Below, piece after piece: positions 288 through 63,142 of a stretch of 64,000 bases of DNA. The position numbers and the translations under genes were made by a program. Numbering within the stretch: the stretch's first letter is position 1; each line of letters opens with the position of its first letter. Source of the stretch: Centroscyllium fabricii (Eukaryota); assembly GCA_051313645.2 (NCBI GenBank), contig JBNRSN020000015.1, positions 38,192,001-38,256,000 on the forward strand, in the 5' to 3' direction. The notes beneath the pieces are model-generated. The model made no database searches. It had not been told where the DNA came from and was given only the letters and a program-made list of their open reading frames with translations.

Positions 288-554
288 TTCCTTCCAAGCC
301 TGGAGATATTACAGTGACGAGCTTTACCAACAGTTCAATCTCTCTGAGCTTGGGGAAACCTACAGGCATGAAGGTCGCTCAATACAACTTTAGCATTATA
401 CACAGTCATTCTAATGGCAATGGCTCATTCATTGAGCGTACAAACTCCACCACAATAACTGGCCTAGAACCTGGAACCAATTACACCATCTCTGTAACTA
501 CCGTTGTTTTTGGTGATGTGAAGAGTGAAGCTGTAGTTATAAACCAATTCACAA
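288..554 (+). CDS. FN3 exon A, unit 1 (267 nt, phase 1-1)
   Basis: Acceptor ctttcctcccaacag ends at 287; donor a|gtaagt at 555; encodes PSKPGDITV...GLEPGTNYTISV...NQFT. Confidence 0.93.
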
Positions 555-3500
555 GTAAGTGAGACACAATTTCTGCTGTGGAACTCGATTTTAATGGACT
601 GTGTGCATGGATGGATACAACCAATAAATGGTCTGCTCTCAAGCAATTGAGAACCCTAACTGTGGGATAGCTCTGCTGAGAGGTTATTGGAATGTGCAAG
701 ATTGGCATTGGCAGAAACCTTGGTGAACTCTGTTACTGACCGCTGTAGAGTGTATCGGTTTATTGGCAACCTTTCACACGCAAGAAGTGACTATTTTGTT
801 TAAATGCAACCTTGTTGAGAAAGATGATACTTTTGAAATGGGATAGACTAATGTATCTGATTTGGCAGGCTCTGGTGTCAAAATTTGATTGATGAGTGGA
901 CATTTCTTTGACATAGGTATCCATAGGGGTAGTAGAAGAGGAGACAGGATGAGTGGACCTGATTAATTCCCAGCCTAAAGCATCTTAGTTATCAAGATAG
1001 GTTAAAAGAGCTGGGGCTCTACACTTTAGAGAAGCATAGACTTGGGGTCATCAGGTTGAGGTTTATAGGATGTTTACCAGTTGACTCTTTGTTCCAACTA
1101 ATTAGGTTAGGGAGGACAGGGGGGTCACAATTTGAAGCTGTTTAAGGCCAGATCTAGGTTCGATGTGATGAGGTGCTTCTTTTGCCAGAGAATAGTGGAC
1201 CTCTGGAGCAGGCTGGCCGTCTCATGCAGCAGACGCCGACTCGATAAATTCCTTCACGTGAGAGCTCGACCTGTTTCTAGTTGGGGTGGATATCACCTCT
1301 GACGAAAGCTAGGTATTTCATGGAATTCAGAGTCCGAGTAATCTCCTGGACTAGTTTTGTTCGCCTAGATGGGTCAGTGAGGAATTTCCCAGATTTTTTT
1401 ACCCTAAATTGGTCTGGGTTTTAAAGATCACATGGTTTCAGGTGGGGTGGCAATATCGCGATTGTGTGGGACATGCTGGATGGAGCAGAGGGTCTTTACC
1501 TGTCGGTCATTGTTCATATGTTTGTATATTTGCTGTGAATTACATCAAAGTTTTAGCAAGTTATAGCTTGGTGGAGTGACCGTTTCTCACCAATGGGACA
1601 TTGGACCCATTGGCTCCCTGATACATTTGTCACAGCAGACCACAACAACAGCAACCCTCATTTATATGATGCCTTTAACGTAGGAAATTATCCCAAGGTG
1701 TTCCACAGAAGGGTTCTAAAAACAAAAATTGACACCGCTGCATATCATTGAAGAATATTGTCTGCAGTGGAACACATGGGAATATATTTCAATAAATGGC
1801 GTAGATGGAACAGATGTGACAAATGTGCAATTGTGTGGAATCAGCAGTGTTGGCATCATCAGTTGATGGGCAACTGAAATCGAGGAAAATTAAGACGGTT
1901 GCAAAAGTTGTTCAACTGCAAGACAAGGCAATGGTTTATTGGATACAAATTGCAGTAATGATGATTGACATCTATAGACAGGTAGCCTGTGATGATGTGA
2001 CAAGCCAGCAGTGGCCGGCGAATGTTGCATCAAACTGGTGGATTCTGCTAGCGGCTTGGAATGAAGATGCTTGGAGGCGAGGATGCTTATAATCTCTGGG
2101 TTGACATCAAGTTGATGTGCACACTGTGCAGTACCTTTGCCCATTACCTAGTTATGAAATCTATTTGCTTTTCTATAATTCTGTTCCTGTGTGGAGAATT
2201 GTCTCAAACCTGTTTGCAGGGTGGCAGACAAAGCAAAAGCACCTAGCACGAGTGGTGGTCAAAATTCTGTAAGATATTTTGCAGATAGAGGGGCCAGAAA
2301 TATTTGCTCACTGTTTGCCAACTCTCCCAGTGGAAGGACTTGGTTAATGGGAAAGGTCTTCCGCAGGAGGTAGTCCACAGACGATGAGAATCAAAAGTGT
2401 GATAAGAAATCTGTGTAGGGTTGGTTACGTGGTTGTTGAGGTTGACATTGAGGAGTCGAATCTGAATGAGTCATTTGACCAACCAGACAACTTGTACAGC
2501 ACAGTTGCGATTATGATTAATTAGGATGGTTGAAAGTGGTTGCGTTGTTTTAAAGGATCTTCTTGAAGTATTAAATTGTCACACTTAGGTTGTTGATGTG
2601 ATGGTTGTGATTGGCAGTGCCATCACAATGGAAAGGAATTGGAATGATATAGATTGAATCTGCACAGGTTATCATGGATCATCGACGACAGCGGAGAATG
2701 AGCCGGTGTGAGATTGATGTTATTCTCAACATCTCATTAATATTTGCAGAACCAAATCCTGTGACCAATGTAACAGTTTTGAATCGCAACACCACTTCAG
2801 TTACTCTAAGCTGGGTCCGTCCAATCGACCACAAGCCTCGGTACAGATACAGGGTGGAGACTAGGGAAAATCCATCTTCAAATAGCACTGTTACTAATGA
2901 ATCCATTACCGTGGCTCAACTGGACCCTGGAACCAGATACACGTTCAGCGTGTTCACACTGGCGGCAGATGGTACATTAGCAGATCCGGTCACCATCTCT
3001 CTGACTACAGGTAGGAGTGCGGCTCAATTTGTATTTTGGTTCAATGAGAGTTCCTCCATGACCAAGATTTTGAAAAACACTGGTTAGGCCTCAGCTGGAG
3101 GATTGTGTTCAGTTCTGGGTACTCCACTTTTGGAAGGATGTCGAGGGCTTAGAGAGGGTGCCCTTGACCGGTACCAGGGATGAGGGACGTCTGTTGTGTG
3201 GAGAGAGTGGAAAAGCCAGGGTTGTTCTCCTTAGAACAGAGAAGATTAAGAGGAGATTTGATAGAGGTGTTCAAAATCATGAATGGTCTTGATAGAGTAA
3301 ATGAGGAGAAACACTTTCCAGTGGCAGAAGGACCGGTAACCAGAGACACAGATGTAAGGCAATTAGCAAAAGAAGCAGAGGCGACATGAGGAAACATTTT
3401 CTACACAGTGAGTTGTTGTGATTCAGAATGCACTGCCTGAAAGGGTGGTGAAAGCAGATTCCGTGGTAACTTTGAAAAGGAAAAGTGGTGAAATATTTGA

Positions 3501-6500
3501 AGGGGAAAAAGTTGCAGGACTTTGGGGAAAAAGTGGGCGAGTTGGACTCGTTGGAAAGCTCTACCAAAGAGCCGGCACAGACACCATGTCGTCCTCCTAC
3601 GATCGATGGGTAAAACTGGAGACTGTCGCTTCTGATTCAATCGTAAAGAAATGGACACCCATGAACAGAAAGAAAACATCAAGCTGAAAATTCATGTGAC
3701 GGATGTAATTTGACTATCAATCTTCGAGAATTGAAATCCAAATAATGTTGGATGCCTTTTATGTTAGCAGGTGGAAAGGGTCTAAAGTCAGAAACTTAAC
3801 TGGACCAGTCAAATTGGGTTGTAGGCCAAAGAAATTAGCTAAGGACTCAGTCTATCCTTTTCCATTTCAGTCAGCAACATTTGTTGATTTGACCCTGACC
3901 AGAACTTGGATGGTTTTTAAGTATTCAGTTCTATATCATGTTTTTTGTGTGTAACTTTCCTCCCAACAGTTCCTTCCAAGCCTAGAGATATTACGGTGAC
4001 GAGCTTTACCAACAGTTCAATCTCTCTGAGCTTGGGGAAACCTACAGGCATGAAGGTCGCTCAATACAACTTTAGCATTATACACAGTCATTCTAATGGC
4101 AATGGCTCATTCATTGAGCGTACAAACTCCACCACAATAAGTGGCCTAGAACCTGGAACCAATTACACCATCTCTGTAACTACCATTGTTTTTGGTGATG
4201 TGAAGAGTGAAGCTGTAGTTATAAACCAATTCACAAGTAAGTGAGACACAATTTCTGCTGTGGAACTCGATTTTAATGGACTGTGTGCATGGATGGATAC
4301 AACCAATAAATGGTCTGCTCTCAAGCAATTGAGAACCCTAACTGTGGAATGGCTCTGCTGAGAGGTTATTGGAATGTGCAAGATTGGCATTGGCAGAAAC
4401 CTTGGTGAACTCTGTTACTGACCGCTGTAGAGTGTATCGGTTTATTGGCAACCTTTCACACGCAAGAAGTGACTATTTTGTTTAAATGCAACCTTGTTGA
4501 GAAAGATGATACTTTTGAAATGGGATAGACTAATGTATCTGATTTGGCAGGCTCTGGTGTCAAAATTTGATTGATGAGTGGACATTTCTTTGACATAGGT
4601 ATCCATAGGGGTAGTAGAAGAGGAGACAGGATGAGTGGACCTGATTAATTCCCAGCCTAAAGCATCTTAGTTATCAAGATAGGTTAAAAGAGCTGGGGCT
4701 CTACACTTTAGAGAAGCATAGACTTGGGGTCATCAGGTTGAGGTTTATAGGATGTTTACCAGTTGACTCTTTGTTCCAACTAATTAGGTTAGGGAGGACA
4801 GGGGGGTCACAATTTGAAGCTGTTTAAGGCCAGATCTAGGTTCGATGTGATGAGGTGCTTCTTTTGCCAGAGAATAGTGGACCTCTGGAGCAGGCTGGCC
4901 GTCTCATGCAGCAGACGCCGACTCGCTAAATTCCTTCACGTGAGAGCTCGACCTGTTTCTAGTTGGGGTGGATATCACCTCTGACGAAAGCTAGGTATTT
5001 CATGGAATTCAGAGTCCGAGTAATCTCCTGGACTAGTTTTGTTCGCCTAGATGGGTCAGTGAGGAATTTCCCAGATTTTTTTACCCTAAATTGGTCTGGG
5101 TTTTAAAGATCACATGGTTTCAGGTGGGGTGGCAATATCGCGATTGTGTGGGACATGCTGGATGGAGCAGAGGGTCTTTACCTGTCGGTCATTGTTCATA
5201 TGTTTGTATATTTGCTGTGAATTACATCAAAGTTTTAGCAAGTTATAGCTTGGTGGAGTGACCGTTTCCCACCAATGGGACATTGGACCCATTGGCTCCC
5301 TGATACATTTGACACAGCAGACCACAACAACAGCAACCCTCATTTATATGATGCCTTTAACGTAGGAAATTATCCCAAGGTGTTCCACAGAAGGGTTCTA
5401 AAAACAAAAATTGACACCGCTGCATATCATTGAAGAATATTGTCTGCAGTGGAACACATGGGAATATATTTCAATAAATGGCGTAGATGGAACAGATGTG
5501 ACAAATGTGCAATTGTGTGGAATCAGCAGTGTTGGCATCATCAGTTGATGGGCAACTGAAATCGAGGAAAATTAAGACTGTTGCAAAAGTTGTTCAACTG
5601 AAAGACAAGGCAATGGTTTATTGGATACAAATTGCAGTAATGATGATTGACATCTATAGACAGGTAGCCTGTGATGATGTGACAAGCCAGCAGTGGCCGG
5701 CGAATGTTGCATCAAACTGGTGGATTCTGCTAGCGGCTTGGAATGAAGATGCTTGGAGGCGAGGATGCTTATAATCTCTGGGTTGACATCAAGTTGATGT
5801 GCACACTGTGCAGTACCTTTGCCCATTACCTAGTTATGAAATCTATTTGCTTTTCTATAATTCTGTTCCTGTGTGGAGAATTGTCTCAAACCTGTTTACA
5901 GGGTGGCAGACAAAGCAAAAGCACCTAGCACGAGTGGTGGTCAAAATTCTGTAAGATATTTTGCAGATAGAGGGGCCAGAAATATTTGCTCACTGTTTGC
6001 CAACTCTCCCAGTGGAAGGACTTGGTTAATGGGAAAGGTCTTCCGCAGGAGGTAGTCCACAGACGATGAGAATCAAAAGTGTGATAAGAAATCTGTGTAG
6101 GGTTGGTTACGTGGTTGTTGAGGTTGACATTGAGGAGTCGAATCTGAATGAGTCATTTGACCAACCAGACAACTTGTACAGCACAGTTGCGATTATGATT
6201 AATTAGGATGGTTGAAAGTGGTTGCGTTGTTTTAAAGGATCTTCTTGAAGTATTAAATTGTCACACTTAGGTTGTTGATGTGATGGTTGTGATTGGCAGT
6301 GCCATCACAATGGAAAGGAATTGGAATGATATAGATTGAATCTGCACAGGTTATCATGGATCATCGACGACAGCGGAGAATGAGCCGGTGTGAGATTGAT
6401 GTTATTCTCAACATCTCATTAATATTTGCAGAACCAAATCCTGTGACCAATGTAACAGTTTTGAATCGCAACACCACTTCAGTTACTCTAAGCTGGGTCC

Positions 6501-9500
6501 GTCCAATCGACCACAAGCCTCGGTACAGATACAGGGTGGAGACTAGGGAAAATCCATCTTCAAATAGCACTGTTACTAATGAATCCATTACCGTGGCTCA
6601 ACTGGACCCTGGAACCAGATACACGTTCAGCGTGTTCACACTGGCGGCAGATGGTACATTAGCAGATCCGGTCACCATCTCTCTGACTACAGGTAGGAGT
6701 GCGGCTCAATTTGTATTTTGGTTCAATGAGAGTTCCTCCATGACCAAGATTTTGAAAAACACTGGTTAGGCCTCAGCTGGAGGATTGTGTTCAGTTCTGG
6801 GTACTCCACTTTTGGAAGGTTGTCGAGGGCTTGGAGAGGGTGCACTTGACCGGTACCAGGGATGAGGGACGTCTGTTGTGTGGAGAGAGTGGAAAAGCCA
6901 GGGTTGTTCTCCTTAGAACAGAGAAGGTTAAGAGGAGATTTGATAGAGGTGTTCAAAATCATGAATGGTCTTGATAGAGTAAATGAGGAGAAACACTTTC
7001 CAGTGGCAGAAGGACCGGTAACCAGAGACACAGATGTAAGGCAATTAGCAAAAGAAGCAGAGGCGACATGAGGAAACATTTTCTACACAGTGAGTTGTTG
7101 TGATTCAGAATGCACTGCCTGAAAGGGTGGTGAAAGCAGATTCCGTGGTAACTTTGAAAAGGAAAAGTGGCGAAATATTTGAAGGGGAAAAAGTTGCAGG
7201 ACTTTGGGGAAAAAGTGGTCGAGTTGGACTCGTTGGAAAGCTCTACCAAAGAGCCGGCACAGACACCATGGACCGTATGTCGTCCTCCTACGATCGATGG
7301 GTAAAACTGGAGACTGTCGCTTCTGATTCAATCGTAAAGAAATGGACACCCATGAACAGAAAGAAAACATCAAGCTGAAAATTCATGTGACGGATGTAAT
7401 TTGACTATCAATCTTCGAGAATTGAAATCCAAATAATGTTGGATGCCTTTTATGTTAGCAGGTGGAAAGGGTCTAAAGTCAGAAACTTAACTGGACCAGT
7501 CAAATTGGGTTGTAGGCCAAAGAAATTAGCTAAGGACTCAGTCTATCCTTTTCCATTTCAGTCGGCAACATTTGTTGATTTGACCCTGACCAGAACTTGG
7601 ATGGTTTTTAAGTATTCAGTTCTATATCATGTTTTTTGTGTGTAACTTTCCTCCCAACAGTTCCTTCCAAGCCTGGAGATATTACAGTGACGAGCTTTAC
7701 CAACAGTTCAATCTCTCTGAGCTTGGGGAAACCTACAGGCATGAAGGTCGCTCAATACAACTTTAGCATTATACACAGTCATTCTAATGGCAATGGCTCA
7801 TTCATTGAGCGTACAAACTCCACCACAATAACTGGCCTAGAACCTGGAACCAATTACACCATCTCTGTAACTACCGTTGTTTTTGGTGATGTGAAGAGTG
7901 AAGCTGTAGTTATAAACCAATTCACAAGTAAGTGAGACACAATTTCTGCTGTGGAACTCGATTTTAATGGACTGTGTGCATGGATGGATACAACCAATAA
8001 ATGGTCTGCTCTCAAGCAATTGAGAACCCTAACTGTGGGATAGCTCTGCTGAGAGGTTATTGGAATGTGCAAGATTGGCATTGGCAGAAACCTTGGTGAA
8101 CTCTGTTACTGACCGCTGTAGAGTGTATCGGTTTATTGGCAACCTTTCACACGCAAGAAGTGACTATTTTGTTTAAATGCAACCTTGTTGAGAAAGATGA
8201 TACTTTTGAAATGGGATAGACTAATGTATCTGATTTGGCAGGCTCTGGTGTCAAAATTTGATTGATGAGTGGACATTTCTTTGACATAGGTATCCATAGG
8301 GGTAGTAGAAGAGGAGACAGGATGAGTGGACCTGATTAATTCCCAGCCTAAAGCATCTTAGTTATCAAGATAGGTTAAAAGAGCTGGGGCTCTACACTTT
8401 AGAGAAGCATAGACTTGGGGTCATCAGGTTGAGGTTTATAGGATGTTTACCAGTTGACTCTTTGTTCCAACTAATTAGGTTAGGGAGGACAGGGGGGTCA
8501 CAATTTGAAGCTGTTTAAGGCCAGATCTAGGTTCGATGTGATGAGGTGCTTCTTTTGCCAGAGAATAGTGGACCTCTGGAGCAGGCTGGCCGTCTCATCC
8601 TTCACGTGAGAGCTCGACCTGTTTCTAGTTGGGGTGGATATCACCTCTGACGAAAGCTAGGTATTTCATGGAATTCAGAGTCCGAGTAATCTCCTGGACT
8701 AGTTTTGTTCGCCTAGATGGGTCAGTGAGGAATTTCCCAGATTTTTTTACCCTAAATTGGTCTGGGTTTTAAAGATCACATGGTTTCAGGTGGGGTGGCA
8801 ATATCGCGATTGTGTGGGACATGCTGGATGGAGCAGAGGGTCTTTACCTGTCGGTCATTGTTCATATGTTTGTATATTTGCTGTGAATTACATCAAAGTT
8901 TTAGCAAGTTATAGCTTGGTGGAGTGACCGTTTCTCACCAATGGGACATTGGACCCATTGGCTCCCTGATACATTTGACACAGCAGACCACAACAACAGC
9001 AACCCTCATTTATATGATGCCTTTAACGTAGGAAATTATCCCAAGGTGTTCCACAGAAGGGTTCTAAAAACAAAAATTGACACCGCTGCATATCATTGAA
9101 GAATATTGTCTGCAGTGGAACACATGGGAATATATTTCAATAAATGGCGTAGATGGAACAGATGTGACAAATGTGCAATTGTGTGGAATCAGCAGTGTTG
9201 GCATCATCAGTTGATGGGCAACTGAAATCGAGGAAAATTAAGACTGTTGCAAAAGTTGTTCAACTGAAAGACAAGGCAATGGTTTATTGGATACAAATTG
9301 CAGTAATGATGATTGACATCTATAGACAGGTAGCCTGTGATGATGTGACAAGCCAGCAGTGGCCGGCGAATGTTGCATCAAACTGGTGGATTCTGCTAGC
9401 GGCTTGGAATGAAGATGCTTGGAGGCGAGGATGCTTATAATCTCTGGGTTGACATCAAGTTGATGTGCACACTGTGCAGTACCTTTGCCCATTACCTAGT

Positions 9501-51500: not shown

Positions 51501-54500
51501 GTAAAGAAATGGACACCCATGAACAGAAAGAAAACATCAAGCTGAAAATTCATGTGACGGATGTAATTTGACTATCAATCTTCGAGAATTGAAATCCAAA
51601 TAATGTTGGATGCCTTTTATGTTAGCAGGTGGAAAGGGTCTAAAGTCAGAAACTTAACTGGACCAGTCAAATTGGGTTGTAGGCCAAAGAAATTAGCTAA
51701 GGACTCAGTCTATCCTTTTCCATTTCAGTCGGCAACATTTGTTGATTTGACCCTGACCAGAACTTGGATGGTTTTTAAGTATTCAGTTCTATATCATGTT
51801 TTTTGTGTGTAACTTTCCTCCCAACAGTTCCTTCCAAGCCTGGAGATATTACAGTAACGAGCTTTACCAACAGTTCAATCTCTCTGAGCTTGGGGAAACC
51901 TACAGGCATGAAGGTCGCTCAATACAACTTTAGCATTATACACAGTCATTCTAATGGCAATGGCTCATTCATTGAGCGTACAAACTCCACCACAATAACT
52001 GGCCTAGAACCTGGAACCAATTACACCATCTCTGTAACTACCGTTGTTTTTGGTGATGTGAAGAGTGAAGCTGTAGTTATAAACCAATTCACAAGTAAGT
52101 GAGACACAATTTCTGCTGTGGAACTCGATTTTAATGGACTGTGTGCATGGATGGATACAACCAATAAATGGTCTGCTCTCAAGCAATTGAGAACCCTAAC
52201 TGTGGGATAGCTCTGCTGAGAGGTTATTGGAATGTGCAAGATTGGCATTGGCAGAAACCTTGGTGAACTCTGTTACTGACCGCTGTAGAGTGTATCGGTT
52301 TATTGGCAACCTTTCACATGCAAGAAGTGACTATTTTGTTTAAATGCAACCTTGTTGAGAAAGATGATACTTTTGAAATGGGATAGACTAATGTATCTGA
52401 TTTGGCAGGCTCTGGTGTCAAAATTTGATTGATAAGTGGACATTTCTTTGACATAGGTATCCATAGGGGTAGTAGAAGAGGAGACAGGATGAGTGGACCT
52501 GATTAATTCCCAGCCTAAAGCATCTTAGTTATCAAGATAGGTTAAAAGAGCTGGGGCTCTACACTTTAGAGAAGCATAGACTTGGGGTCATCAGGTTGAG
52601 GTTTATAGGATGTGTACCAGTTGACTCTTTGTTCCAACTAATTAGGTTAGGGAGGACAGGGGGGTCACAATTTGAAGCTGTTTAAGGCCAGATCTAGGTT
52701 CGATGTGATGAGGTGCTTCTTTTGCCAGAGAATAGTGGACCTCTGGAGCAGGCTGGCCGTCTCATGCAGCAGACGCCGATTCGATAAATTCCTTCACGTG
52801 AGAGCTCGACCTGTTTCTAGTTGGGGTGGATATCACCTCTGACGAAAGCTAGGTATTTCATGGAATTCAGAGTCCGAGTAATCTCCTGGACTAGTTTTGT
52901 TCGCCTAGATGGGTCAGTGAGGAATTTCCCAGATTTTTTTACCCTAAATTGGTCTGGGTTTTAAAGATCACATGGTTTCAGGTGGGGTGGCAATATCGCG
53001 ATTGTGTGGGACATGCTGGATGGAGCAGAGGGTCTTTACCTGTCGGTCATTGTTCATATGTTTGTATATTTGCTGTAAATTACATCAAAGTTTTAGCAAG
53101 TTATAGCTTGGTGGAGTGACCGTTTCTCACCAATGGGACATTGGACCCATTGGCTCCCTGATACATTTGACACAGCAGACCACAACAACAGCAACCCTCA
53201 TTTATATGATGCCTTTAACGTAGGAAATTATCCCAAGGTGTTCCACAGAAGGGTTCTAAAAACAAAAATTGACACCGCTGCATATCATTGAAGAATATTG
53301 TCTGCAGTGGAACACATGGGAATATATTTCAATAAATGGCGTAGATGGAACAGATGTGACAAATGTGCAATTGTGTGGAATCAGCAGTGTTGGCATCATC
53401 AGTTGATGGGCAACTGAAATCGAGGAAAATTAAGACGGTTGCAAAAGTTGTTCAACTGCAAGACAAGGCAATGGTTTATTGGATACAAATTGCAGTAATG
53501 ATAATTGACATCTATAGACAGGTAGCCTGTGATGATGTGACAAGCCAGCAGTGGCCGGCGAATGTTGCATCAAACTGGTGGATTCTGCTAGCGGCTTGGA
53601 ATGAAGATGCTTGGAGGCGAGGATGCTTATAATCTCTGGGTTGACATCAAGTTGATGTGCACACTGTGCAGTACCTTTGCCCATTACCTAGTTATGAAAT
53701 CTATTTGCTTTTCTATAATTCTGTTCCTGTGTGGAGAATTGTCTCAAACCTGTTTGCAGGGTGGCAGACAAAGCAAAAGCACCTAGCACGAGTGGTGGTC
53801 AAAATTCTGTAAGATATTTTGCAGATAGAGGGGCCAGAAATATTTGCTCACTGTTTGCCAACTCTCCCAGTGGAAGGACTTGGTTAATGGGAAAGGTCTT
53901 CCGCAGGAGGTAGTCCACAGACGATGAGAATCAAAAGTGTGATAAGAAATCTGTGTAGGGTTGGTTACGTGGTTGTTGAGGTTGACATTGAGGAGTCGAA
54001 TCTGAATGAGTCATTTGACCAACCAGACAACTTGTACAGCACAGTTGCGATTATGATTAATTAGGATGGTTGAAAGTGGTTGCGTTGTTTTAAAGGATCT
54101 TCTTGAAGTATTAAATTGTCACACTTAGGTTGTTGATGTGATGGTTGTGATTGGCAGTGCCATCACAATGGAAAGGAATTGGAATGATATAGATTGAATC
54201 TGCACAGGTTATCATGGATCATCGACGACAGCGGAGAATGAGCCGGTGTGAGATTGATGTTATTCTCAACATCTCATTAATATTTGCAGAACCAAATCCT
54301 GTGACCAATGTAACAGTTTTGAATCGCAACACCACTTCAGTTACTCTAAGCTGGGTCCGTCCAATCGACCACAAGCCTCGGTACAGATACAGGGTGGAGA
54401 CTAGGGAAAATCCATCTTCAAATAGCACTGTTACTAATGAATCCATTACCGTGGCTCAACTGGACCCTGGAACCAGATACACGTTCAGCGTGTTCACACT

Positions 54501-57500
54501 GGCGGCAGATGGTACATTAGCAGATCCGGTCACCATCTCTCTGACTACAGGTAGGAGTGCGGCTCAATTTGTATTTTGGTTCAATGAGAGTTCCTCCATG
54601 ACCAAGATTTTGAAAAACACTGGTTAGGCCTCAGCTGGAGGATTGTGTTCAGTTCTGGGTACTCCACTTTTGGAAGGATGTCGAGGGCTTGGAGAGGGTG
54701 CACTTGACCGGTACCAGGGATGAGGGACGTCTGTTGTGTGGAGAGAGTGGAAAAGCCAGGGTTGTTCTCCTTAGAACAGAGAAGGTTAAGAGGAGATTTG
54801 ATAGAGGTGTTCAAAATCATGAATGGTCTTGATAGAGTAAATGAGGAGAAACACTTTCCAGTGGCAGAAGGACCGGTAACCAGAGACACAGATGTAAGGC
54901 AATTAGCAAAAGAAGCAGAGGCGACATGAGGAAACATTTTCTACACAGTGAGTTGTTGTGATTCAGAATGCACTGCCTGAAAGGGTGGTGAAAGCAGATT
55001 CCGCGGTAACTTTGAAAAGGAAAAGTGGCGAAATATTTGAAGGGGAAAAAGTTGCAGGACTTTGGGGAAAAAGTGGGCGAGTTGGACTCGTTGGAAAGCT
55101 CTACCAAAGAGCCGGCACAGACACCATGGACCGTATGTCGTCCTCCTACGATCGATGGGTAAAACTGGAGACTGTCGCTTCTGATTCAATCGTAAAGAAA
55201 TGGACACCCATGAACAGAAAGAAAACATCAAGCTGAAAATTCATGTGACGGATGTAATTTGACTATCAATCTTCGAGAATTGAAATCCAAATAATGTTGG
55301 ATGCCTTTTATGTTAGCAGGTGGAAAGGGTCTAAAGTCAGAAACTTAACTGGACCAGTCAAATTGGGTTGTAGGCCAAAGAAATTAGCTAAGGACTCAGT
55401 CTATCCTTTTCCATTTCAGTCGGCAACATTTGTTGATTTGACCCTGACCAGAACTTGGATGGTTTTTAAGTATTCAGTTCTATATCATGTTTTTTGTGTG
55501 TAACTTTCCTCCCAACAGTTCCTTCCAAGCCTGGAGATATTACAGTGACGAGCTTTACCAACAGTTCAATCTCTCTGAGCTTGGGGAAACCTACAGGCAT
55601 GAAGGTCGCTCAATACAACTTTAGCATTATACACAGTCATTCTAATGGCAATGGCTCATTCATTGAGCGTACAAACTCCACCACAATAACTGGCCTAGAA
55701 CCTGGAACCAATTACACCATCTCTGTAACTACCGTTGTTTTTGGTGATGTGAAGAGTGAAACTGTAGTTATAAACCAATTCACAAGTAAGTGAGACACAA
55801 TTTCTGCTGTGGAACTCGATTTTAATGGACTGTGTGCATGGATGGATACAACCAATAAATGGTCTGCTCTCAAGCAATTGAGAACCCTAACTGTGGGATA
55901 GCTCTGCTGAGAGGTTATTGGAATGTGCAAGATTGGCATTGGCAGAAACCTTGGTGAACTCTGTTACTGACCGCTGTAGAGTGTATCGGTTTATTGGCAA
56001 CCTTTCACACGCAAGAAGTGACTATTTTGTTTAAATGCAACCTTGTTGAGAAAGATGATACTTTTGAAATGGGATAGACTAATGTATCTGATTTGGCAGG
56101 CTCTGGTGTCAAAATTTGATTGATGAGTGGACATTTCTTTGACATAGGTATCCATAGGGGTAGTAGAAGAGGAGACAGGATGAGTGGACCTGATTAATTC
56201 CCAGCCTAAAGCATCTTGGTTATCAAGATAGGTTAAAAGAGCTGGGGCTCTACACTTTAGAGAAGCATAGACTTGGGGTCATCAGGTTGAGGTTTATAGG
56301 ATGTTTACCAGTTGACTCTTTGTTCCAACTAATTAGGTTAGGGAGGACAGGGGGGTCACAATTTGAAGCTGTTTAAGGCCAGATCTAGGTTCGATGTGAT
56401 GAGGTGCTTCTTTTGCCAGAGAATAGTGGACCTCTGGAGCAGGCTGGCCGTCTCATCCTTCACGTGAGAGCTCGACCTGTTTCTAGTTGGGGTGGATATC
56501 ACCTCTGACGAAAGCTAGGTATTTCATGGAATTCAGAGTCCGAGTAATCTCCTGGACTAGTTTTGTTCGCCTAGATGGGTCAGTGAGGAATTTCCCAGAT
56601 TTTTTTACCCTAAATTGGTCTGGGTTTTAAAGATCACATGGTTTCAGGTGGGGTGGCAATATCGCGATTGTGTGGGACATGCTGGATGGAGCAGAGGGTC
56701 TTTACCTGTCGGTCATTGTTCATATGTTTGTATATTTGCTGTGAATTACATCAAAGTTTTAGCAAGTTATAGCTTGGTGGAGTGACCGTTTCTCACCAAT
56801 GGGACATTGGACCCATTGGCTCCCTGATACATTTGACACAGCAGACCACAACAACAGCAACCCTCATTTATATGATGCCTTTAACGTAGGAAATTATCCC
56901 AAGGTGTTCCACAGAAGGGTTCTAAAAACAAAAATTGACACCGCTGCATATCATTGAAGAATATTGTCTGCAGTGGAACACATGGGAATATATTTCAATA
57001 AATGGCGTAGATGGAACAGATGTGACAAATGTGCAATTGTGTGGAATCAGCAGTGTTGGCATCATCAGTTGATGGGCAACTGAAATCGAGGAAAATTAAG
57101 ACTGTTGCAAAAATTGTTCAACTGAAAGACAAGGCAATGGTTTATTGGATACAAATTGCAGTAATGATGATTGACATCTATAGACAGGTAGCCTGTGATG
57201 ATGTGACAAGCCAGCAGTGGCCGGCGAATGTTGCATCAAACTGGTGGATTCTGCTAGCGGCTTGGAATGAAGATGCTTGGAGGCGAGGATGCTTATAATC
57301 TCTGGGTTGACATCAAGTTGATGTGCACACTGTGCAGTACCTTTGCCCATTACCTAGTTATGAAATCTATTTGCTTTTCTATAATTCTGTTCCTGTGTGG
57401 AGAATTGTCTCAAACCTGTTTGCAGGGTGGCAGACAAAGCAAAAGCACCTAGCACGAGTGGTGGTCAAAATTCTGTAAGATATTTTGCAGATAGAGGGGC

Positions 57501-60500
57501 CAGAAATATTTGCTCACTGTTTGCCAACTCTCCCAGTGGAAGGACTTGGTTAATGGGAAAGGTCTTCCGCAGGAGGTAGTCCACAGACGATGAGAATCAA
57601 AAGTGTGATAAGAAATCTGTGTAGGGTTGGTTACGTGGTTGTTGAGGTTGACATTGAGGAGTCGAATCTGAATGAGTCATTTGACCAACCAGACAACTTG
57701 TACAGCACAGTTGCGATTATGATTAATTAGGATGGTTGAAAGTGGTTGCGTTGTTTTAAAGGATCTTCTTGAAGTATTAAATTGTCACACTTAGGTTGTT
57801 GATGTGATGGTTGTGATTGGCAGTGCCATCACAATGGAAAGGAATTGGAATGATATAGATTGAATCTGCACAGGTTATCATGGATCATCGACGACAGCGG
57901 AGAATGAGCCGGTGTGAGATTGATGTTATTCTCAACATCTCATTAATATTTGCAGAACCAAATCCTGTGACCAATGTAACAGTTTTGAATCGCAACACCA
58001 CTTCAGTTACTCTAAGCTGGGTCCGTCCAATCGACCACAAGCCTCGGTACAGATACAGGGTGGAGACTAGGGAAAATCCATCTTCAAATAGCACTGTTAC
58101 TAATGAATCCATTACCGTGGCTCAACTGGACCCTGGAACCAGATACACGTTCAGCGTGTTCACACTGGCGGCAGATGGTACATTAGCAGATCCGGTCACC
58201 ATCTCTCTGACTACAGGTAGGAGTGCGGCTCAATTTGTATTTTGGTTCAATGAGAGTTCCTCCATGACCAAGATTTTGAAAAACACTGGTTAGGCCTCAG
58301 CTGGAGGATTGTGTTCAGTTCTGGGTACTCCACTTTTGGAAGGATGTCGAGGGCTTGGAGAGGGTGCACTTGACCGGTACCAGGGATGAGGGACGTCTGT
58401 TGTGTGGAGAGAGTGGAAAAGCCAGGGTTGTTCTCCTTAGAACAGAGAAGGTTAAGAGGAGATTTGATAGAGGTGTTCAAAATCATGAATGGTCTTGATA
58501 GAGTAAATGAGGAGAAACACTTTCCAGTGGCAGAAGGACCGGTAACCAGAGACACAGATGTAAGGCAATTAGCAAAAGAAGCAGAGGCGACATGAGGAAA
58601 CATTTTCTACACAGTGAGTTGTTGTGATTCAGAATGCACTGCCTGAAAGGGTGGTGAAAGCAGATTCCGCGGTAACTTTGAAAAGGAAAAGTGGCGAAAT
58701 ATTTGAAGGGGAAAAAGTTGCAGGACTTTGGGGAAAAAGTGGGCGAGTTGGACTCGTTGGAAAGCTCTACCAAAGAGCCGGCACAGACACCATGGACCGT
58801 ATGTCGTCCTCCTACGATCGATGGGTAAAACTGGAGACTGTCGCTTCTGATTCAATCGTAAAGAAATGGACACCCATGAACAGAAAGAAAACATCAAGCT
58901 GAAAATTCATGTGACGGATGTAATTTGACTATCAATCTTCGAGAATTGAAATCCAAATAATGTTGGATGCCTTTTATGTTAGCAGGTGGAAAGGGTCTAA
59001 AGTCAGAAACTTAACTGGACCAGTCAAATTGGGTTGTAGGCCAAAGAAATTAGCTAAGGACTCAGTCTATCCTTTTCCATTTCAGTCGGCAACATTTGTT
59101 GATTTGACCCTGACCAGAACTTGGATGGTTTTTAAGTATTCAGTTCTATATCATGTTTTTTGTGTGTAACTTTCCTCCCAACAGTTCCTTCCAAGCCTGG
59201 AGATATTACAGTGACGAGCTTTACCAACAGTTCAATCTCTCTGAGCTTGGGGAAACCTACAGGCATGAAGGTCGCTCAATACAACTTTAGCATTATACAC
59301 AGTCATTCTAATGGCAATGGCTCATTCATTGAGCGTACAAACTCCACCACAATAACTGGCCTAGAACCTGGAACCAATTACACCATCTCTGTAACTACCG
59401 TTGTTTTTGGTGATGTGAAGAGTGAAGCTGTAGTTATAAACCAATTCACAAGTAAGTGAGACACAATTTCTGCTGTGGAACTCGATTTTAATGGACTGTG
59501 TGCATGGATGGATACAACCAATAAATGGTCTGCTCTCAAGCAATTGAGAACCCTAACTGTGGGATAGCTCTGCTGAGAGGTTATTGGAATGTGCAAGATT
59601 GGCATTGGCAGAAACCTTGGTGAACTCTGTTACTGACCGCTGTAGAGTGTATCGGTTTATTGGCAACCTTTCACACGCAAGAAGTGACTATTTTGTTTAA
59701 ATGCAACCTTGTTGAGAAAGATGATACTTTTGAAATGGGATAGACTAATGTATCTGATTTGGCAGGCTCTGGTGTCAAAATTTGATTGATGAGTGGACAT
59801 TTCTTTGACATAGGTATCCATAGGGGTAGTAGAAGAGGAGACAGGATGAGTGGACCTGATTAATTCCCAGCCTAAAGCATCTTGGTTATCAAGATAGGTT
59901 AAAAGAGCTGGGGCTCTACACTTTAGAGAAGCATAGACTTGGGGTCATCAGGTTGAGGTTTATAGGATGTTTACCAGTTGACTCTTTGTTCCAACTAATT
60001 AGGTTAGGGAGGACAGGGGGGTCACAATTTGAAGCTGTTTAAGGCCAGATCTAGGTTCGATGTGATGAGGTGCTTCTTTTGCCAGAGAATAGTGGACCTC
60101 TGGAGCAGGCTGGCCGTCTCATGCAGCAGACGCCGACTCGCTAAATTCCTTCACGTGAGAGCTCGACCTGTTTCTAGTTGGGGTGGATATCACCTCTGAC
60201 GAAAGCTAGGTATTTCATGGAATTCAGAGTCCGAGTAATCTCCTGGACTAGTTTTGTTCGCCTAGATGGGTCAGTGAGGAATTTCCCAGATTTTTTTACC
60301 CTAAATTGGTCTGGGTTTTAAAGATCACATGGTTTCAGGTGGGGTGGCAATATCGCGATTGTGTGGGACATGCTGGATGGAGCAGAGGGTCTTTACCTGT
60401 CGGTCATTGTTCATATGTTTGTATATTTGCTGTGAATTACATCAAAGTTTTAGCAAGTTATAGCTTGGTGGAGTGACCGTTTCTCACCAATGGGACATTG

Positions 60501-63142
60501 GACCCATTGGCTCCCTGATACATTTGACACAGCAGACCACAACAACAGCAACCCTCATTTATATGATGCCTTTAACGTAGGAAATTATCCCAAGGTGTTC
60601 CACAGAAGGGTTCTAAAAACAAAAATTGACACCGCTGCATATCATTGAAGAATATTGTCTGCAGTGGAACACATGGGAATATATTTCAATAAATGGCGTA
60701 GATGGAACAGATGTGACAAATGTGCAATTGTGTGGAATCAGCAGTGTTGGCATCATCAGTTGATGGGCAACTGAAATCGAGGAAAATTAAGACTGTTGCA
60801 AAAGTTGTTCAACTGAAAGACAAGGCAATGGTTTATTGGATACAAATTGCAGTAATGATGATTGACATCTATAGACAGGTAGCCTGTGATGATGTGACAA
60901 GCCAGCAGTGGCCGGCGAATGTTGCATCAAACTGGTGGATTCTGCTAGCGGCTTGGAATGAAGATGCTTGGAGGCGAGGATGCTTATAATCTCTGGGTTG
61001 ACATCAAGTTGATGTGCACACTGTGCAGTACCTTTGCCCATTACCTAGTTATGAAATCTATTTGCTTTTCTATAATTCTGTTCCTGTGTGGAGAATTGTC
61101 TCAAACCTGTTTGCAGGGTGGCAGACAAAGCAAAAGCACCTAGCACGAGTGGTGGTCAAAATTCTGTAAGATATTTTGCAGATAGAGGGGCCAGAAATAT
61201 TTGCTCACTGTTTGCCAACTCTCCCAGTGGAAGGACTTGGTTAATGGGAAAGGTCTTCCGCAGGAGGTAGTCCACAGACGATGAGAATCAAAAGTGTGAT
61301 AAGAAATCTGTGTAGGGTTGGTTACGTGGTTGTTGAGGTTGACATTGAGGAGTCGAATCTGAATGAGTCATTTGACCAACCAGACAACTTGTACAGCACA
61401 GTTGCGATTATGATTAATTAGGATGGTTGAAAGTGGTTGCGTTGTTTTAAAGGATCTTCTTGAAGTATTAAATTGTCACACTTAGGTTGTTGATGTGATG
61501 GTTGTGATTGGCAGTGCCATCACAATGGAAAGGAATTGGAATGATATAGATTGAATCTGCACAGGTTATCATGGATCATCGACGACAGCGGAGAATGAGC
61601 CGGTGTGAGATTGATGTTATTCTCAACATCTCATTAATATTTGCAGAACCAAATCCTGTGACCAATGTAACAGTTTTGAATCGCAACACCACTTCAGTTA
61701 CTCTAAGCTGGGTCCGTCCAATCGACCACAAGCCTCGGTACAGATACAGGGTGGAGACTAGGGAAAATCCATCTTCAAATAGCACTGTTACTAATGAATC
61801 CATTACCGTGGCTCAACTGGACCCTGGAACCAGATACACGTTCAGCGTGTTCACACTGGCGGCAGATGGTACATTAGCAGATCCGGTCACCATCTCTCTG
61901 ACTACAGGTAGGAGTGCGGCTCAATTTGTATTTTGGTTCAATGAGAGTTCCTCCATGACCAAGATTTTGAAAAACACTGGTTAGGCCTCAGCTGGAGGAT
62001 TGTGTTCAGTTCTGGGTACTCCACTTTTGGAAGGATGTCGAGGGCTTGGAGAGGGTGCACTTGACCGGTACCAGGGATGAGGGACGTCTGTTGTGTGGAG
62101 AGAGTGGAAAAGCCAGGGTTGTTCTCCTTAGAACAGAGAAGGTTAAGAGGAGATTTGATAGAGGTGTTCAAAATCATGAATGGTCTTGATAGAGTAAATG
62201 AGGAGAAACACTTTCCAGTGGCAGAAGGACCGGTAACCAGAGACACAGATGTAAGGCAATTAGCAAAAGAAGCAGAGGCGACATGAGGAAACATTTTCTA
62301 CACAGTGAGTTGTTGTGATTCAGAATGCACTGCCTGAAAGGGTGGTGAAAGCAGATTCCGTGGTAACTTTGAAAAGGAAAAGTGGCGAAATATTTGAAGG
62401 GGAAAAAGTTGCAGGACTTTGGGGAAAAAGTGGTCGAGTTGGACTCGTTGGAAAGCTCTACCAAAGAGCCGGCACAGACACCATGGACCGTATGTCGTCC
62501 TCCTACGATCGATGGGTAAAACTGGAGACTGTCGCTTCTGATTCAATCGTAAAGAAATGGACACCCATGAACAGAAAGAAAACATCAAGCTGAAAATTCA
62601 TGTGACGGATGTAATTTGACTATCAATCTTCGAGAATTGAAATCCAAATAATGTTGGATGCCTTTTATGTTAGCAGGTGGAAAGGGTCTAAAGTCAGAAA
62701 CTTAACTGGACCAGTCAAATTGGGTTGTAGGCCAAAGAAATTAGCTAAGGACTCAGTCTATCCTTTTCCATTTCAGTCGGCAACATTTGTTGATTTGACC
62801 CTGACCAGAACTTGGATGGTTTTTAAGTATTCAGTTCTATATCATGTTTTTTGTGTGTAACTTTCCTCCCAACAGTTCCTTCCAAGCCTGGAGATATTAC
62901 AGTGACGAGCTTTACCAACAGTTCAATCTCTCTGAGCTTGGGGAAACCTACAGGCATGAAGGTCGCTCAATACAACTTTAGCATTATACACAGTCATTCT
63001 AATGGCAATGGCTCATTCATTGAGCGTACAAACTCCACCACAATAACTGGCCTAGAACCTGGAACCAATTACACCATCTCTGTAACTACCGTTGTTTTTG
63101 GTGATGTGAAGAGTGAAGCTGTAGTTATAAACCAATTCACAA
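288..63142 (+). CDS. Internal part of a multi-exon gene encoding a giant FN3-repeat protein (35 or more FN3 domains), possibly an R3-type receptor tyrosine phosphatase-like ectodomain
   Basis: 35 exons, all AG/GT bounded and phase 1-1. They join in frame: A-to-B junction a+aa = Lys (QFT-K-PNPV), B-to-A junction g+tt = Val (LTT-V-PSKP). FN3 signatures are P..P..I.V, S(I/V).LS(W/L), Y, and GLEPGTNY/QLDPGTRY. The family assignment rests on resemblance only. Confidence 0.88.
623..628 (+). promoter_or_regulatory. Candidate intronic polyadenylation hexamer AATAAA downstream of exon A (in every unit)
   Basis: ccAATAAAtg lies about 60 nt after the TGA (560-562) reached by reading through the exon A donor. 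Confidence 0.3.
935..1530 (+). mobile_element. Decayed 5'-truncated CR1-clade LINE fragment 1 (ORF2 C-terminus plus 3' UTR); same position in every unit; boundaries approximate
   Basis: Manual translation from 966 gives IPSLKHLSYQDRLKELGLYTLEKHRL, then (frameshifted) RTGGHNLKLFKARSRFDVMRCFFCQRIVDLWSRL. These match the CR1 ORF2 tail motifs (LSYEERLKELGLFSLEKRRL; RTRGHSLKL...FF.QRVV..WN.LP). A CR1-like 3' end (ctggatgga...ggtcttt.cctg..gtcat) follows. Confidence 0.8.
1641..1745 (-). mobile_element. Probable L2-LINE/SINE-type 3' tail remnant, antisense; present in every complete unit
   Basis: The minus strand reads ...ccttgggataatttcctacgttaaaggcatcatataaatgagggttgctgttgttg. This resembles the 'gttaaaggcgctatataaatgcaagttgttgtt' 3' tail typical of L2-related elements in cartilaginous fishes (recalled similarity, not searched). 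Confidence 0.5.
2750..3010 (+). CDS. FN3 exon B, unit 1 (261 nt, phase 1-1)
   Basis: Acceptor tatttgcag ends at 2749; donor cag|gtagga at 3011; encodes PNPVTNVTV...SVTLSW...QLDPGTRYTFSV...SLTT. Confidence 0.93.
3011..3969 (+). other. Intron B-to-A (959 bp in unit 1, 968 bp elsewhere), repeated in every unit
   Basis: Begins GTAGGA; ends with a branch-like gtgtaac, a pyrimidine tract and CAG. Confidence 0.9.
3073..3600 (+). mobile_element. Decayed 5'-truncated CR1-clade LINE fragment 2; same position in every complete unit; boundaries approximate
   Basis: Translates as KTLVRPQLEDCVQFWVLHFWKDVEGLERV ... PGMRD ... GLFSLEQRRLRGDLIEVFKIMNGLDRVNEEKHFP ... NALPERVVKADS, the canonical CR1 ORF2 C-terminus with frameshifts. 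It ends in a gagccggcacagac...atggaccg.atg..tcct CR1-type 3' UTR. Confidence 0.92.
3970..4236 (+). CDS. FN3 exon A, unit 2 (variant G>R, T>S, V>I)
   Basis: Same splice sites as unit 1; ORF 3945..4244. Confidence 0.92.
6432..6692 (+). CDS. FN3 exon B, unit 2
   Basis: Same splice sites and translation as unit 1. Confidence 0.92.
7661..7927 (+). CDS. FN3 exon A, unit 3
   Basis: Same splice sites and translation as unit 1. Confidence 0.92.
10098..10358 (+). CDS. FN3 exon B, unit 3
   Basis: Same splice sites and translation as unit 1. Confidence 0.92.
11327..11593 (+). CDS. FN3 exon A, unit 4
   Basis: Same splice sites and translation as unit 1. Confidence 0.92.
13789..14049 (+). CDS. FN3 exon B, unit 4
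   Basis: Same splice sites and translation as unit 1. Confidence 0.92.
15018..15284 (+). CDS. FN3 exon A, unit 5
   Basis: Same splice sites and translation as unit 1. Confidence 0.92.
17480..17740 (+). CDS. FN3 exon B, unit 5
   Basis: Same splice sites and translation as unit 1. Confidence 0.92.
18709..18975 (+). CDS. FN3 exon A, unit 6
   Basis: Same splice sites and translation as unit 1. Confidence 0.92.
21146..21400 (+). CDS. FN3 exon B, unit 6 (255 nt; in-frame 6-nt deletion, SNSTVTNES > SNSTNES)
   Basis: ORF 21070..21477 is 135 aa versus 137 aa in other units; splice sites intact. Confidence 0.92.
22369..22635 (+). CDS. FN3 exon A, unit 7 (A>T variant)
   Basis: Same splice sites; KSETVV. 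Confidence 0.92.
24812..25072 (+). CDS. FN3 exon B, unit 7
   Basis: Same splice sites and translation as unit 1. Confidence 0.92.
26041..26307 (+). CDS. FN3 exon A, unit 8
   Basis: Same splice sites and translation as unit 1. Confidence 0.92.
28478..28738 (+). CDS. FN3 exon B, unit 8
   Basis: Same splice sites and translation as unit 1. Confidence 0.92.
29707..29973 (+). CDS. FN3 exon A, unit 9 (R>H variant)
   Basis: Same splice sites; FIEHTNST. Confidence 0.92.
32144..32404 (+). CDS. FN3 exon B, unit 9
   Basis: Same splice sites and translation as unit 1. Confidence 0.92.
33373..33639 (+). CDS. FN3 exon A, unit 10 (R>H variant)
   Basis: Same splice sites; FIEHTNST. Confidence 0.92.
35835..36095 (+). 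CDS. FN3 exon B, unit 10
   Basis: Same splice sites and translation as unit 1. Confidence 0.92.
37064..37330 (+). CDS. FN3 exon A, unit 11
   Basis: Same splice sites and translation as unit 1. Confidence 0.92.
39526..39786 (+). CDS. FN3 exon B, unit 11
   Basis: Same splice sites and translation as unit 1. Confidence 0.92.
40755..41021 (+). CDS. FN3 exon A, unit 12
   Basis: Same splice sites and translation as unit 1. Confidence 0.92.
43217..43477 (+). CDS. FN3 exon B, unit 12
   Basis: Same splice sites and translation as unit 1. Confidence 0.92.
44446..44712 (+). CDS. FN3 exon A, unit 13
   Basis: Same splice sites and translation as unit 1. Confidence 0.92.
46908..47168 (+). CDS. FN3 exon B, unit 13
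   Basis: Same splice sites and translation as unit 1. Confidence 0.92.
48137..48403 (+). CDS. FN3 exon A, unit 14
   Basis: Same splice sites and translation; one synonymous SNP (acc>act). Confidence 0.92.
50599..50859 (+). CDS. FN3 exon B, unit 14
   Basis: Same splice sites and translation; one synonymous SNP (gtg>gta). Confidence 0.92.
51828..52094 (+). CDS. FN3 exon A, unit 15
   Basis: Same splice sites and translation; one synonymous SNP (gtg>gta). Confidence 0.92.
54290..54550 (+). CDS. FN3 exon B, unit 15
   Basis: Same splice sites and translation as unit 1. Confidence 0.92.
55519..55785 (+). CDS. FN3 exon A, unit 16 (A>T variant)
   Basis: Same splice sites; KSETVV. Confidence 0.92.
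57956..58216 (+). CDS. FN3 exon B, unit 16
   Basis: Same splice sites and translation as unit 1. Confidence 0.92.
59185..59451 (+). CDS. FN3 exon A, unit 17
   Basis: Same splice sites and translation as unit 1. Confidence 0.92.
61647..61907 (+). CDS. FN3 exon B, unit 17
   Basis: Same splice sites and translation as unit 1. Confidence 0.92.
62876..63142 (+). CDS. FN3 exon A, unit 18 (last exon in window)
   Basis: Same splice sites and translation as unit 1. Confidence 0.92.

Follow-up and report, generated by a model that had tools for sequence, protein, structure and literature searches.

A 64-kb tandem array of FN3 exons in Centroscyllium fabricii most likely lengthens the outer stalk of CD148 (PTPRJ) several-fold

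Human R3 proteins carry 8–18 FN3 domains, and human CD148 has 8–9 of them (PMC10815196, Table 1). In PTPRB, PTPRH and PTPRJ, the FN3 domains correspond one to one to single exons placed between phase-1 introns (PMC5336234). CD148 is excluded through its ectodomain from the immunological synapse (PMC2173795) as well as from the phagocytic synapse (PMC10815196). Tandem coding units have been described in other proteins. The kringle IV type 2 VNTR of LPA has a 5.6 kb unit, with 1–40 units per allele (PMC11462820), and in tenascin-W a single-exon FN3 domain was duplicated after species split, giving 1–9 copies that are most alike within a species (PMC1578592). A literature search for such an array in PTPRJ found no description, most subscription journals being outside its coverage.

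The window analyzed here, a 64-kb stretch of Centroscyllium fabricii DNA, is a tandem array over its whole length (1-64000, forward strand), with 17.3 copies of a 3.66–3.69 kb unit, that is, 17 complete units plus a partial unit at each end. Self-BLAST gave 17 diagonals in steps of about 3.68 kb with 99.1–99.9% identity, which run up to both window ends. Tandem Repeats Finder returned nothing on the array, its period limit of 500 bp being below the unit size, and Rfam gave 0 matches for one unit (3961 of the 64000 bases).

Each unit (3660–3691 bp) is composed of exon A, an intron of about 2195 bp, exon B and an intron of about 968 bp. In unit 1, exon A1 (288-554, 267 nt, phase 1-1, with Leu replacing the strand-B Trp) is followed by the A-to-B intron (555-2749, GT-AG, present in every unit), exon B1 (2750-3010, 261 nt, phase 1-1) and the B-to-A intron (3011-3969, GT-AG), which has a 9-bp deletion private to this unit. 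The next exons, all on the forward strand, are A2 (3970-4236) and B2 (6432-6692), A3 (7661-7927) and B3 (10098-10358), A4 (11327-11593) and B4 (13789-14049), A5 (15018-15284) and B5 (17480-17740), A6 (18709-18975) and B6 (21146-21400), A7 (22369-22635) and B7 (24812-25072), A8 (26041-26307) and B8 (28478-28738), and A9 (29707-29973) and B9 (32144-32404). The second half of the window contains A10 (33373-33639) and B10 (35835-36095), A11 (37064-37330) and B11 (39526-39786), A12 (40755-41021) and B12 (43217-43477), A13 (44446-44712) and B13 (46908-47168), A14 (48137-48403) and B14 (50599-50859), A15 (51828-52094) and B15 (54290-54550), A16 (55519-55785) and B16 (57956-58216), A17 (59185-59451) and B17 (61647-61907), and A18 (62876-63142), the last exon before the array goes on beyond the window.

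The 18 A exons are 267 nt each and the B exons 261 nt in 16 of 17 cases, B6 being shortened to 255 nt by a 6-nt in-frame deletion. All 35 exons are preceded by AG and followed by GT, and the A donors match the strong consensus in 18 of 18 copies. Joined together, the exons give 9237 nt, or 3079 codons; one frame is free of stops (0, compared with 264 and 159 in the others), and the junction peptides are FT-K-PNP and TT-V-PSK. Exon counts, coordinates, junctions, the stop-free 3079 codons and the openness of the array at both ends coincide exactly with the original prediction, and Pfam and self-BLAST agree with its view of the exons as FN3 domains of an amplified two-exon cassette. Both exons pass the Pfam fn3 cut-off of 25 bits (39.2 and 51.9 bits), with 28% identity between A and B. 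Since all exons are of phase 1-1, gain or loss of any copy leaves the frame intact. Signal peptide, TM and PTP exons were absent from the 64-kb window.

The gene of origin was assigned by homology, and elasmobranch PTPRJ domains were the best matches of both exons. Exon A reaches 88% identity with Pristiophorus and 80–81% with Heterodontus, compared with at most 58% for other domain types, and falls into a 95/97-supported clade with the A domains of these two sharks. Exon B, without a supported clade, reaches 76% with Carcharodon and at most 56% with other domain types. In smaller trees, window A and window B each adjoin Pristiophorus, a placement that points to a squalomorph shark. Five of the six matches to exon B are named, all as elasmobranch 'receptor-type tyrosine-protein phosphatase eta' or eta-like (63–76% identity). 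An unnamed 82-aa ORF (P0059) matches exon A with 99% identity and terminates in intron read-through, so it is a genomic ORF and no transcript evidence, and exon A is thus present in an independent genomic record.

Two of the relatives, Carcharodon P0004 and Pristis P0184, possess a signal peptide, a TM segment and a PTP domain, and in the latter N-B-A-B-A-B-A, the proximal block and the PTP domain stand in one model. Against the human proteins, the PTP domain of P0184 scored 414 bits with PTPRJ, 332 with PTPRB and 288 with PTPRH, and that of P0004 scored 426, 353 and 288 bits, respectively. PTPRH was therefore rejected as the source, and of the CD148/PTPRH-like R3 phosphatase first proposed, the CD148/PTPRJ part stands, on domain identity and the PTP scores of the relatives. 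Tenascin-X was also rejected, as the matches bearing that name are 33–40% identical to the shark pair vs 63–88% for PTPRJ.

The gene structure is in agreement with this assignment: the phase 1-1 single-exon FN3 pattern of PTPRB/H/J is found in 35 of the 35 window exons, and the junction types of the window recur in the Heterodontus, Narcine and Pristiophorus models. At columns invariant in other species, window A retains 32 of 33 residues and window B 12 of 12. The one residue lost is a strand-C Tyr, kept by 13 out of 13 A domains outside the window and replaced by His in each of the 18 window copies. Loss of the strand-B Trp was rejected as a sign of decay because Leu occupies this position in all 13 A domains, from five species. 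By orthology of both domain types, the domains of the window are thus assigned to PTPRJ. We further infer linkage to TM and PTP exons in Centroscyllium fabricii, inclusion of the exons in mRNA and a spacer function.

FN3 domains were then typed against Heterodontus in 14 elasmobranch records from 13 species. From the tip inwards, the order is a single tip domain (single in 11 of the 14 models, absent in three), a variable slot and a proximal block of 8–14 domains. The slot is empty, with neither A nor B, in the Stegostoma, Mustelus and Heptranchias models, which indicates that it is dispensable or skipped. It holds a single B in Carcharodon and in Rhincodon, B-A in Rhinoraja, only B domains in Chiloscyllium (7), Scyliorhinus (8) and Hemiscyllium (10), A-B-A-B-A in Heterodontus, (B-A)3 in Pristis and (B-A)4-A in Narcine. 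The slot size is therefore 0–10 in the 13 species vs at least 35 in the window (at least 3.5 times the largest), with the reservation that these are predicted models and that collapsed assemblies may under-count. Duplication of three-domain cassettes is seen in the proximal block of the Carcharodon P0004 and Rhinoraja P0187 models, either in place of the distal slot or in addition to it.

The cassette had been considered lineage-specific, which does not hold, since A and B are common to sharks and rays and multi-copy in 7 of the 13 elasmobranch species models. Fragmentation of such a gene in assemblies had also been anticipated, and relatives do look broken here, with Pristiophorus A-A-B as a separate 244-aa model apart from the PTP-bearing one. 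Window included, copies group by species in three of the four multi-copy A sets and five of the seven B sets. The B-set exceptions are two bamboo-shark genera with interleaved copies, 72–95% identical, indicating an array older than the genus split that has been kept in open frame since.

Homolog searches with the Heterodontus A-B pair, which covered proteins of up to 5000 aa with shared words, returned 30 and 88 proteins, of which 116 named ones were used and 2 unnamed were dropped. A PTP motif is present in 89 of the 116, and 24 of these 89 have at least 25 FN3 domains. The 23 PTP-bearing models other than PTPRQ, with 25–44 FN3, belong to teleosts (13 species) and frogs (4 species), six records being Anabas isoforms. 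FN3 counts reach 44 in Pagrus (the maximum), 36 in Acanthopagrus, 35 in Spea and 31 in Betta. Among the 89 PTP-bearing matches, 25 contain at least 10 domains for which a sister of 90% identity or more exists, and the highest number of near-identical domains is 30 (Spea) vs at least 35 in the window. Two lizard models have 8–9 FN3 and no duplicates.

PTPRJ assignment by PTP domain was carried out for four proteins (Carcharodon, Acanthopagrus, Spea and Pristis); those of Acanthopagrus and Spea are nearest to PTPRJ among R3 structures. The PTP tree (34 rows, FastTree, midpoint root), built without PTPRB/PTPRH references, separates the giants from PTPRQ only, and Mantella P0016 falls outside the giants in it. 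The amplified units differ by lineage, being B only, A-B or three-domain cassettes, and the teleost and frog founder domains are 33–42% identical to the shark pair, a difference that points to independent amplification events. Equally giant, near-identical FN3 arrays in NCBI models of 17 further species, 13 of them teleosts and 4 frogs, contradict the supposed uniqueness to one lineage; the window becomes less unique, and the general pattern more interesting. Judged from these sequences, cassette amplification in PTPRJ-type genes recurs in non-amniote vertebrates.

The giant models are often named 'beta-like', 'titin-like' or 'uncharacterized', and four giant FN3 arrays (P0007, P0014, P0021 and P0185) bear the names mucin-19-like, tenascin-X, titin-like and titin. 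The lungfish 'mucin-19-like' has 44 FN3 in three-domain repeats without a PTP motif; the other arrays are the Parambassis 'tenascin-X', the Spea 'titin-like' and the Oreochromis 'titin'. Those of lungfish, Parambassis and Spea, not that of Oreochromis, show a Pfam PTPRJ TM-proximal domain, a PTP domain or a clear cassette array. Several of these arrays named mucin-19, tenascin-X or titin are probably misnamed PTPRJ-type genes.

Variation among the units was also analyzed. The 17 complete units, introns included, differ pairwise by 1–21 substitutions (mean 0.28%), with no identical pair. Pairwise divergence is 0.47% in A, 0.05% in B, and 0.29% and 0.27% in the two introns. Variant density does not differ between exons (10 in 528) and introns (44 in 3163; Fisher p = 0.33), and the exon substitutions among copies, only 10 in number for all selection tests, comprise 5 non-synonymous ones and an equal number of synonymous ones (P = 0.15 under neutrality for a non-synonymous count this low), besides the one in-frame deletion. 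Random placement of 51–54 substitutions and 3–4 indels in a unit left exons and splice sites intact in 56–65% of trials. The intact frame, stressed in the original prediction, is therefore expected by chance (P 0.56–0.65 by neutral placement) and was rejected as proof of function. The founder unit was intact, and the array itself tells neither for nor against selection.

For the epaulette shark, a mutation rate of 7e-10 per base per generation, with a wide interval, and an allelic diversity of 0.002 have been reported (PMC10587355). At this rate, and with the width of its interval, the divergence of 0.28% corresponds to about 2 million generations. Since the divergence between units is about the allelic diversity of that shark, ongoing homogenization fits as well as a single burst; near-identity supports the 'recent' amplification that had been proposed, only in a relative sense.

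Exchange between units is suggested by mosaic patterns, in which 22 of the 55 variants are common to more than one unit. The four-gamete test was failed by 57 of the 231 variant pairs, with a minimum of 8 exchanges, some of which recurrent CpG mutation may explain. Mosaic copies, none of them identical, speak for genuine unequal crossover or conversion rather than for assembly error. In units 12–15 (40755-55518), 2 substitutions separate unit 13 from unit 15 and 7 separate unit 12 from unit 14; the pattern resembles a higher-order duplication of two units, with units 12–13 and 14–15 as its copies. Variable sites in exon A number 9 vs 3.7 expected (p = 0.014). Six substitutions private to unit 2 lie within its first 382 bp (3970-4351), four in exon A2 and two just behind, and one of them yields an Ile found in Heterodontus, Pristiophorus and Pristis. 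The stretch resembles a conversion tract whose donor was an older A copy beyond the window.

In intron 1, about 935–960 bp into the unit, a 25-bp deletion is present in 5 of the 17 units (3, 6, 8, 9 and 16), and unit 7 has a different deletion of 19 bp at the same spot; these deletions can serve as copy-specific markers. The intron stretches 4793-4981 and 6756-7068, together with their copies, gave 0 Pfam matches in three frames. We tentatively take their translations to resemble the C-terminal end of a CR1-type LINE reverse transcriptase.

The explanation proposed for these observations is an extreme coding VNTR within the PTPRJ gene that probably forms a glycosylated spacer of variable length. 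The window would lie inside PTPRJ (CD148/DEP-1), in the hypervariable slot, with the tip FN3 on one side and the membrane-proximal block on the other. An old A+B cassette would have reached at least 17 copies via unequal crossing-over, with conversion maintaining their likeness, and most or many copies would be spliced into the receptor. The resulting passive, heavily N-glycosylated stalk would raise the tip domain off the membrane, and the larger ectodomain would keep the phosphatase away from close cell contacts. An FN3 domain has a contour length of about 3.5 nm. Tip, array and the usual 8–14 proximal domains would add up to an ectodomain of about 44–50 FN3 or more and about 160 nm. We lean, with modest confidence, towards an expressed stalk or spacer in PTPRJ, the array being intragenic and many copies spliced in.

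The translated array contains 158 sequons, 9 per unit, and 28.5% Ser/Thr, with no Cys and no RGD. AlphaFold with 9-row alignments, a weak test, gave seven strands for each exon with a pLDDT of 67 (A) and 83 (B), and the predicted A model matches FN3 structures.

Exclusion can be nearly complete for proteins only 2 nm above a 10-nm gap, and long rods have an effective height below their length (PMC6170634). A stalk of 160 nm is hence unnecessary for exclusion alone, and the effect of size may level off far below 120 nm; these points tell against a simple 'molecular ruler' role. The domains amplified differ from lineage to lineage and the tip remains single, a pattern that fits selection on, or tolerance of, length better than a specific site. 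A broader proposal, which we put forward tentatively, is that the length of the PTPRJ ectodomain is evolvable and probably polymorphic in sharks, bony fish and frogs, and fixed at 8–9 domains in amniotes; Centroscyllium fabricii would then express the longest receptor phosphatase observed so far, a CD148 with at least about 47 FN3, at least about 160 nm and over 4,700 aa, its single tip borne on a stalk of repeats, and its length governed by the copy number of the allele and by skipping of exons in frame.

Among the alternatives, a near-neutral accordion in PTPRJ was weighed first, in which copy number drifts, most copies are skipped in frame, and the protein is of ordinary or ladder length with its extra size unselected. 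With phase 1-1 throughout, any subset of exons is skippable, and the copies bear no sign of selection; the slot, empty in 3 of the 13 species models, varies from 0 to 10 without pattern, and teleost giants have isoforms of varied length (26–33 FN3 in the six Anabas records). However, canonical splice sites are kept at all 35 exons, with 18 strong A donors, open-frame multi-copy arrays persist across the two bamboo-shark genera, and giants are found repeatedly among PTPRJ-type genes (17 species of teleosts and frogs), whereas the two lizards have 8–9 FN3 and no duplicates. This makes the drifting array unlikely in our view, if worth keeping in mind.

An avidity or decoy array was considered next, with an A-B surface that binds a host ligand, a lectin or a microbe, and multiplied sites or shed or secreted decoys as the outcome. 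In every unit (555-630 in unit 1), translation past the A donor ends at a stop two codons on, and an AATAAA lies about 69 nt inside the intron, a possible route, on the sequence, to secreted FN3-only forms. Human PTPRJ has a secreted FN3-only isoform (PMC5354644) and its ectodomain has ligands (PMC10815196), and the distal slot was amplified repeatedly and independently in many lineages. The AATAAA within 100 nt of 18 of the 18 A donors are, however, copies of one site, and per unit two are seen where 2.04 are expected by chance. RGD is absent from the array, the amplified domains differ by lineage, which fits length better than a specific site, and near-identical copies speak against diversifying selection. 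We regard a binding or decoy role as improbable.

There is a similarly poor chance that the window is a detached satellite, in which a PTPRJ-derived A-B pair was copied elsewhere, or the gene died, and then spread as a 3.7-kb macrosatellite. Such an origin is compatible with the lack of flanking exons in 64 kb, with variation that agrees with neutrality, with the conserved Tyr gone from all A copies, and with the sawshark (Pristiophorus) A-A-B annotated apart from the PTP-bearing model. Against it, a multi-copy slot lies inside PTPRJ in five complete-looking models (Heterodontus, Narcine, Pristis, Scyliorhinus and Hemiscyllium), the founder unit has intact splice sites and retains 44 of 45 cross-species invariant residues, and the Trp-to-Leu change, common to 13 of 13 A domains, is not decay.

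Hardly credible, finally, is an assembly over-expansion of a short array, or the joining of both haplotypes: the units are 99.7% identical, about the allelic level for a shark (0.002, PMC10587355), and the largest slot in the other elasmobranch models is 10, but no units are identical among the 17, 22 of the 55 variants are mosaic, 40 of the 54 substitutions are transitions and 17 are of CpG type though CpG makes up 3.8% of sites, the indels are of 6, 9, 19 and 25 bp with no homopolymer slips, and 1–3 copies on two haplotypes are insufficient for 17 distinct units.

Most tests of whether CD45 and CD148 are excluded by size have used mammalian cells and engineered truncations. Should the array be expressed, natural CD148 ectodomains would range from about 10 to about 50 domains across sharks, fish and frogs, and the cost and benefit of phosphatase height would become testable across species and perhaps across alleles; if the giant receptor reading is true, they would form a natural length series for size-based phosphatase exclusion. 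The results also mark PTPRJ as a coding VNTR of the LPA type, which non-mammalian annotations show collapsed, split or under wrong names ('beta-like', 'titin-like', 'tenascin-X'). Should most copies be skipped, or the array lie detached from the gene, it amounts to an ordinary macrosatellite made from PTPRJ exons.

Compared with the known systems, the array is closest to elasmobranch PTPRJ (Heterodontus P0003, Pristis P0184, Narcine P0002 and Pristiophorus P0005), with 59–88% identity for A and 60–71% for B, and shares with it the A/B alternation, the junctions and the Leu-for-Trp replacement in A; it differs in having at least 35 domains vs 0–10 in the slot, and the window is without TM/PTP exons. 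Human CD148 has 8–9 FN3 in all vs at least 35 array FN3 in the window (PMC10815196). The teleost and frog giants are alike in their two- or three-domain FN3 cassettes, in copies at least 90% identical and in being PTP-bearing R3 proteins, but they derive from other founder domains and have up to 30 near-identical domains vs at least 35.

The tenascins W and X resemble the window in single-exon FN3 duplications and within-species likeness, and concerted evolution was reportedly described for tenascin-X by Hughes in 1999. They are secreted matrix proteins, however, and tenascin-W multiplies one domain only. LPA KIV-2 is an unrelated protein with the same type of multi-kb, intron-containing coding unit in tandem. 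In the window, introns are as alike as exons, and exchange between units is seen as well (57 of 231 four-gamete failures). In LPA, two exons encode one kringle, whereas each window exon is one whole domain, and inter-individual polymorphism is proven for LPA, while the window is one sequence.
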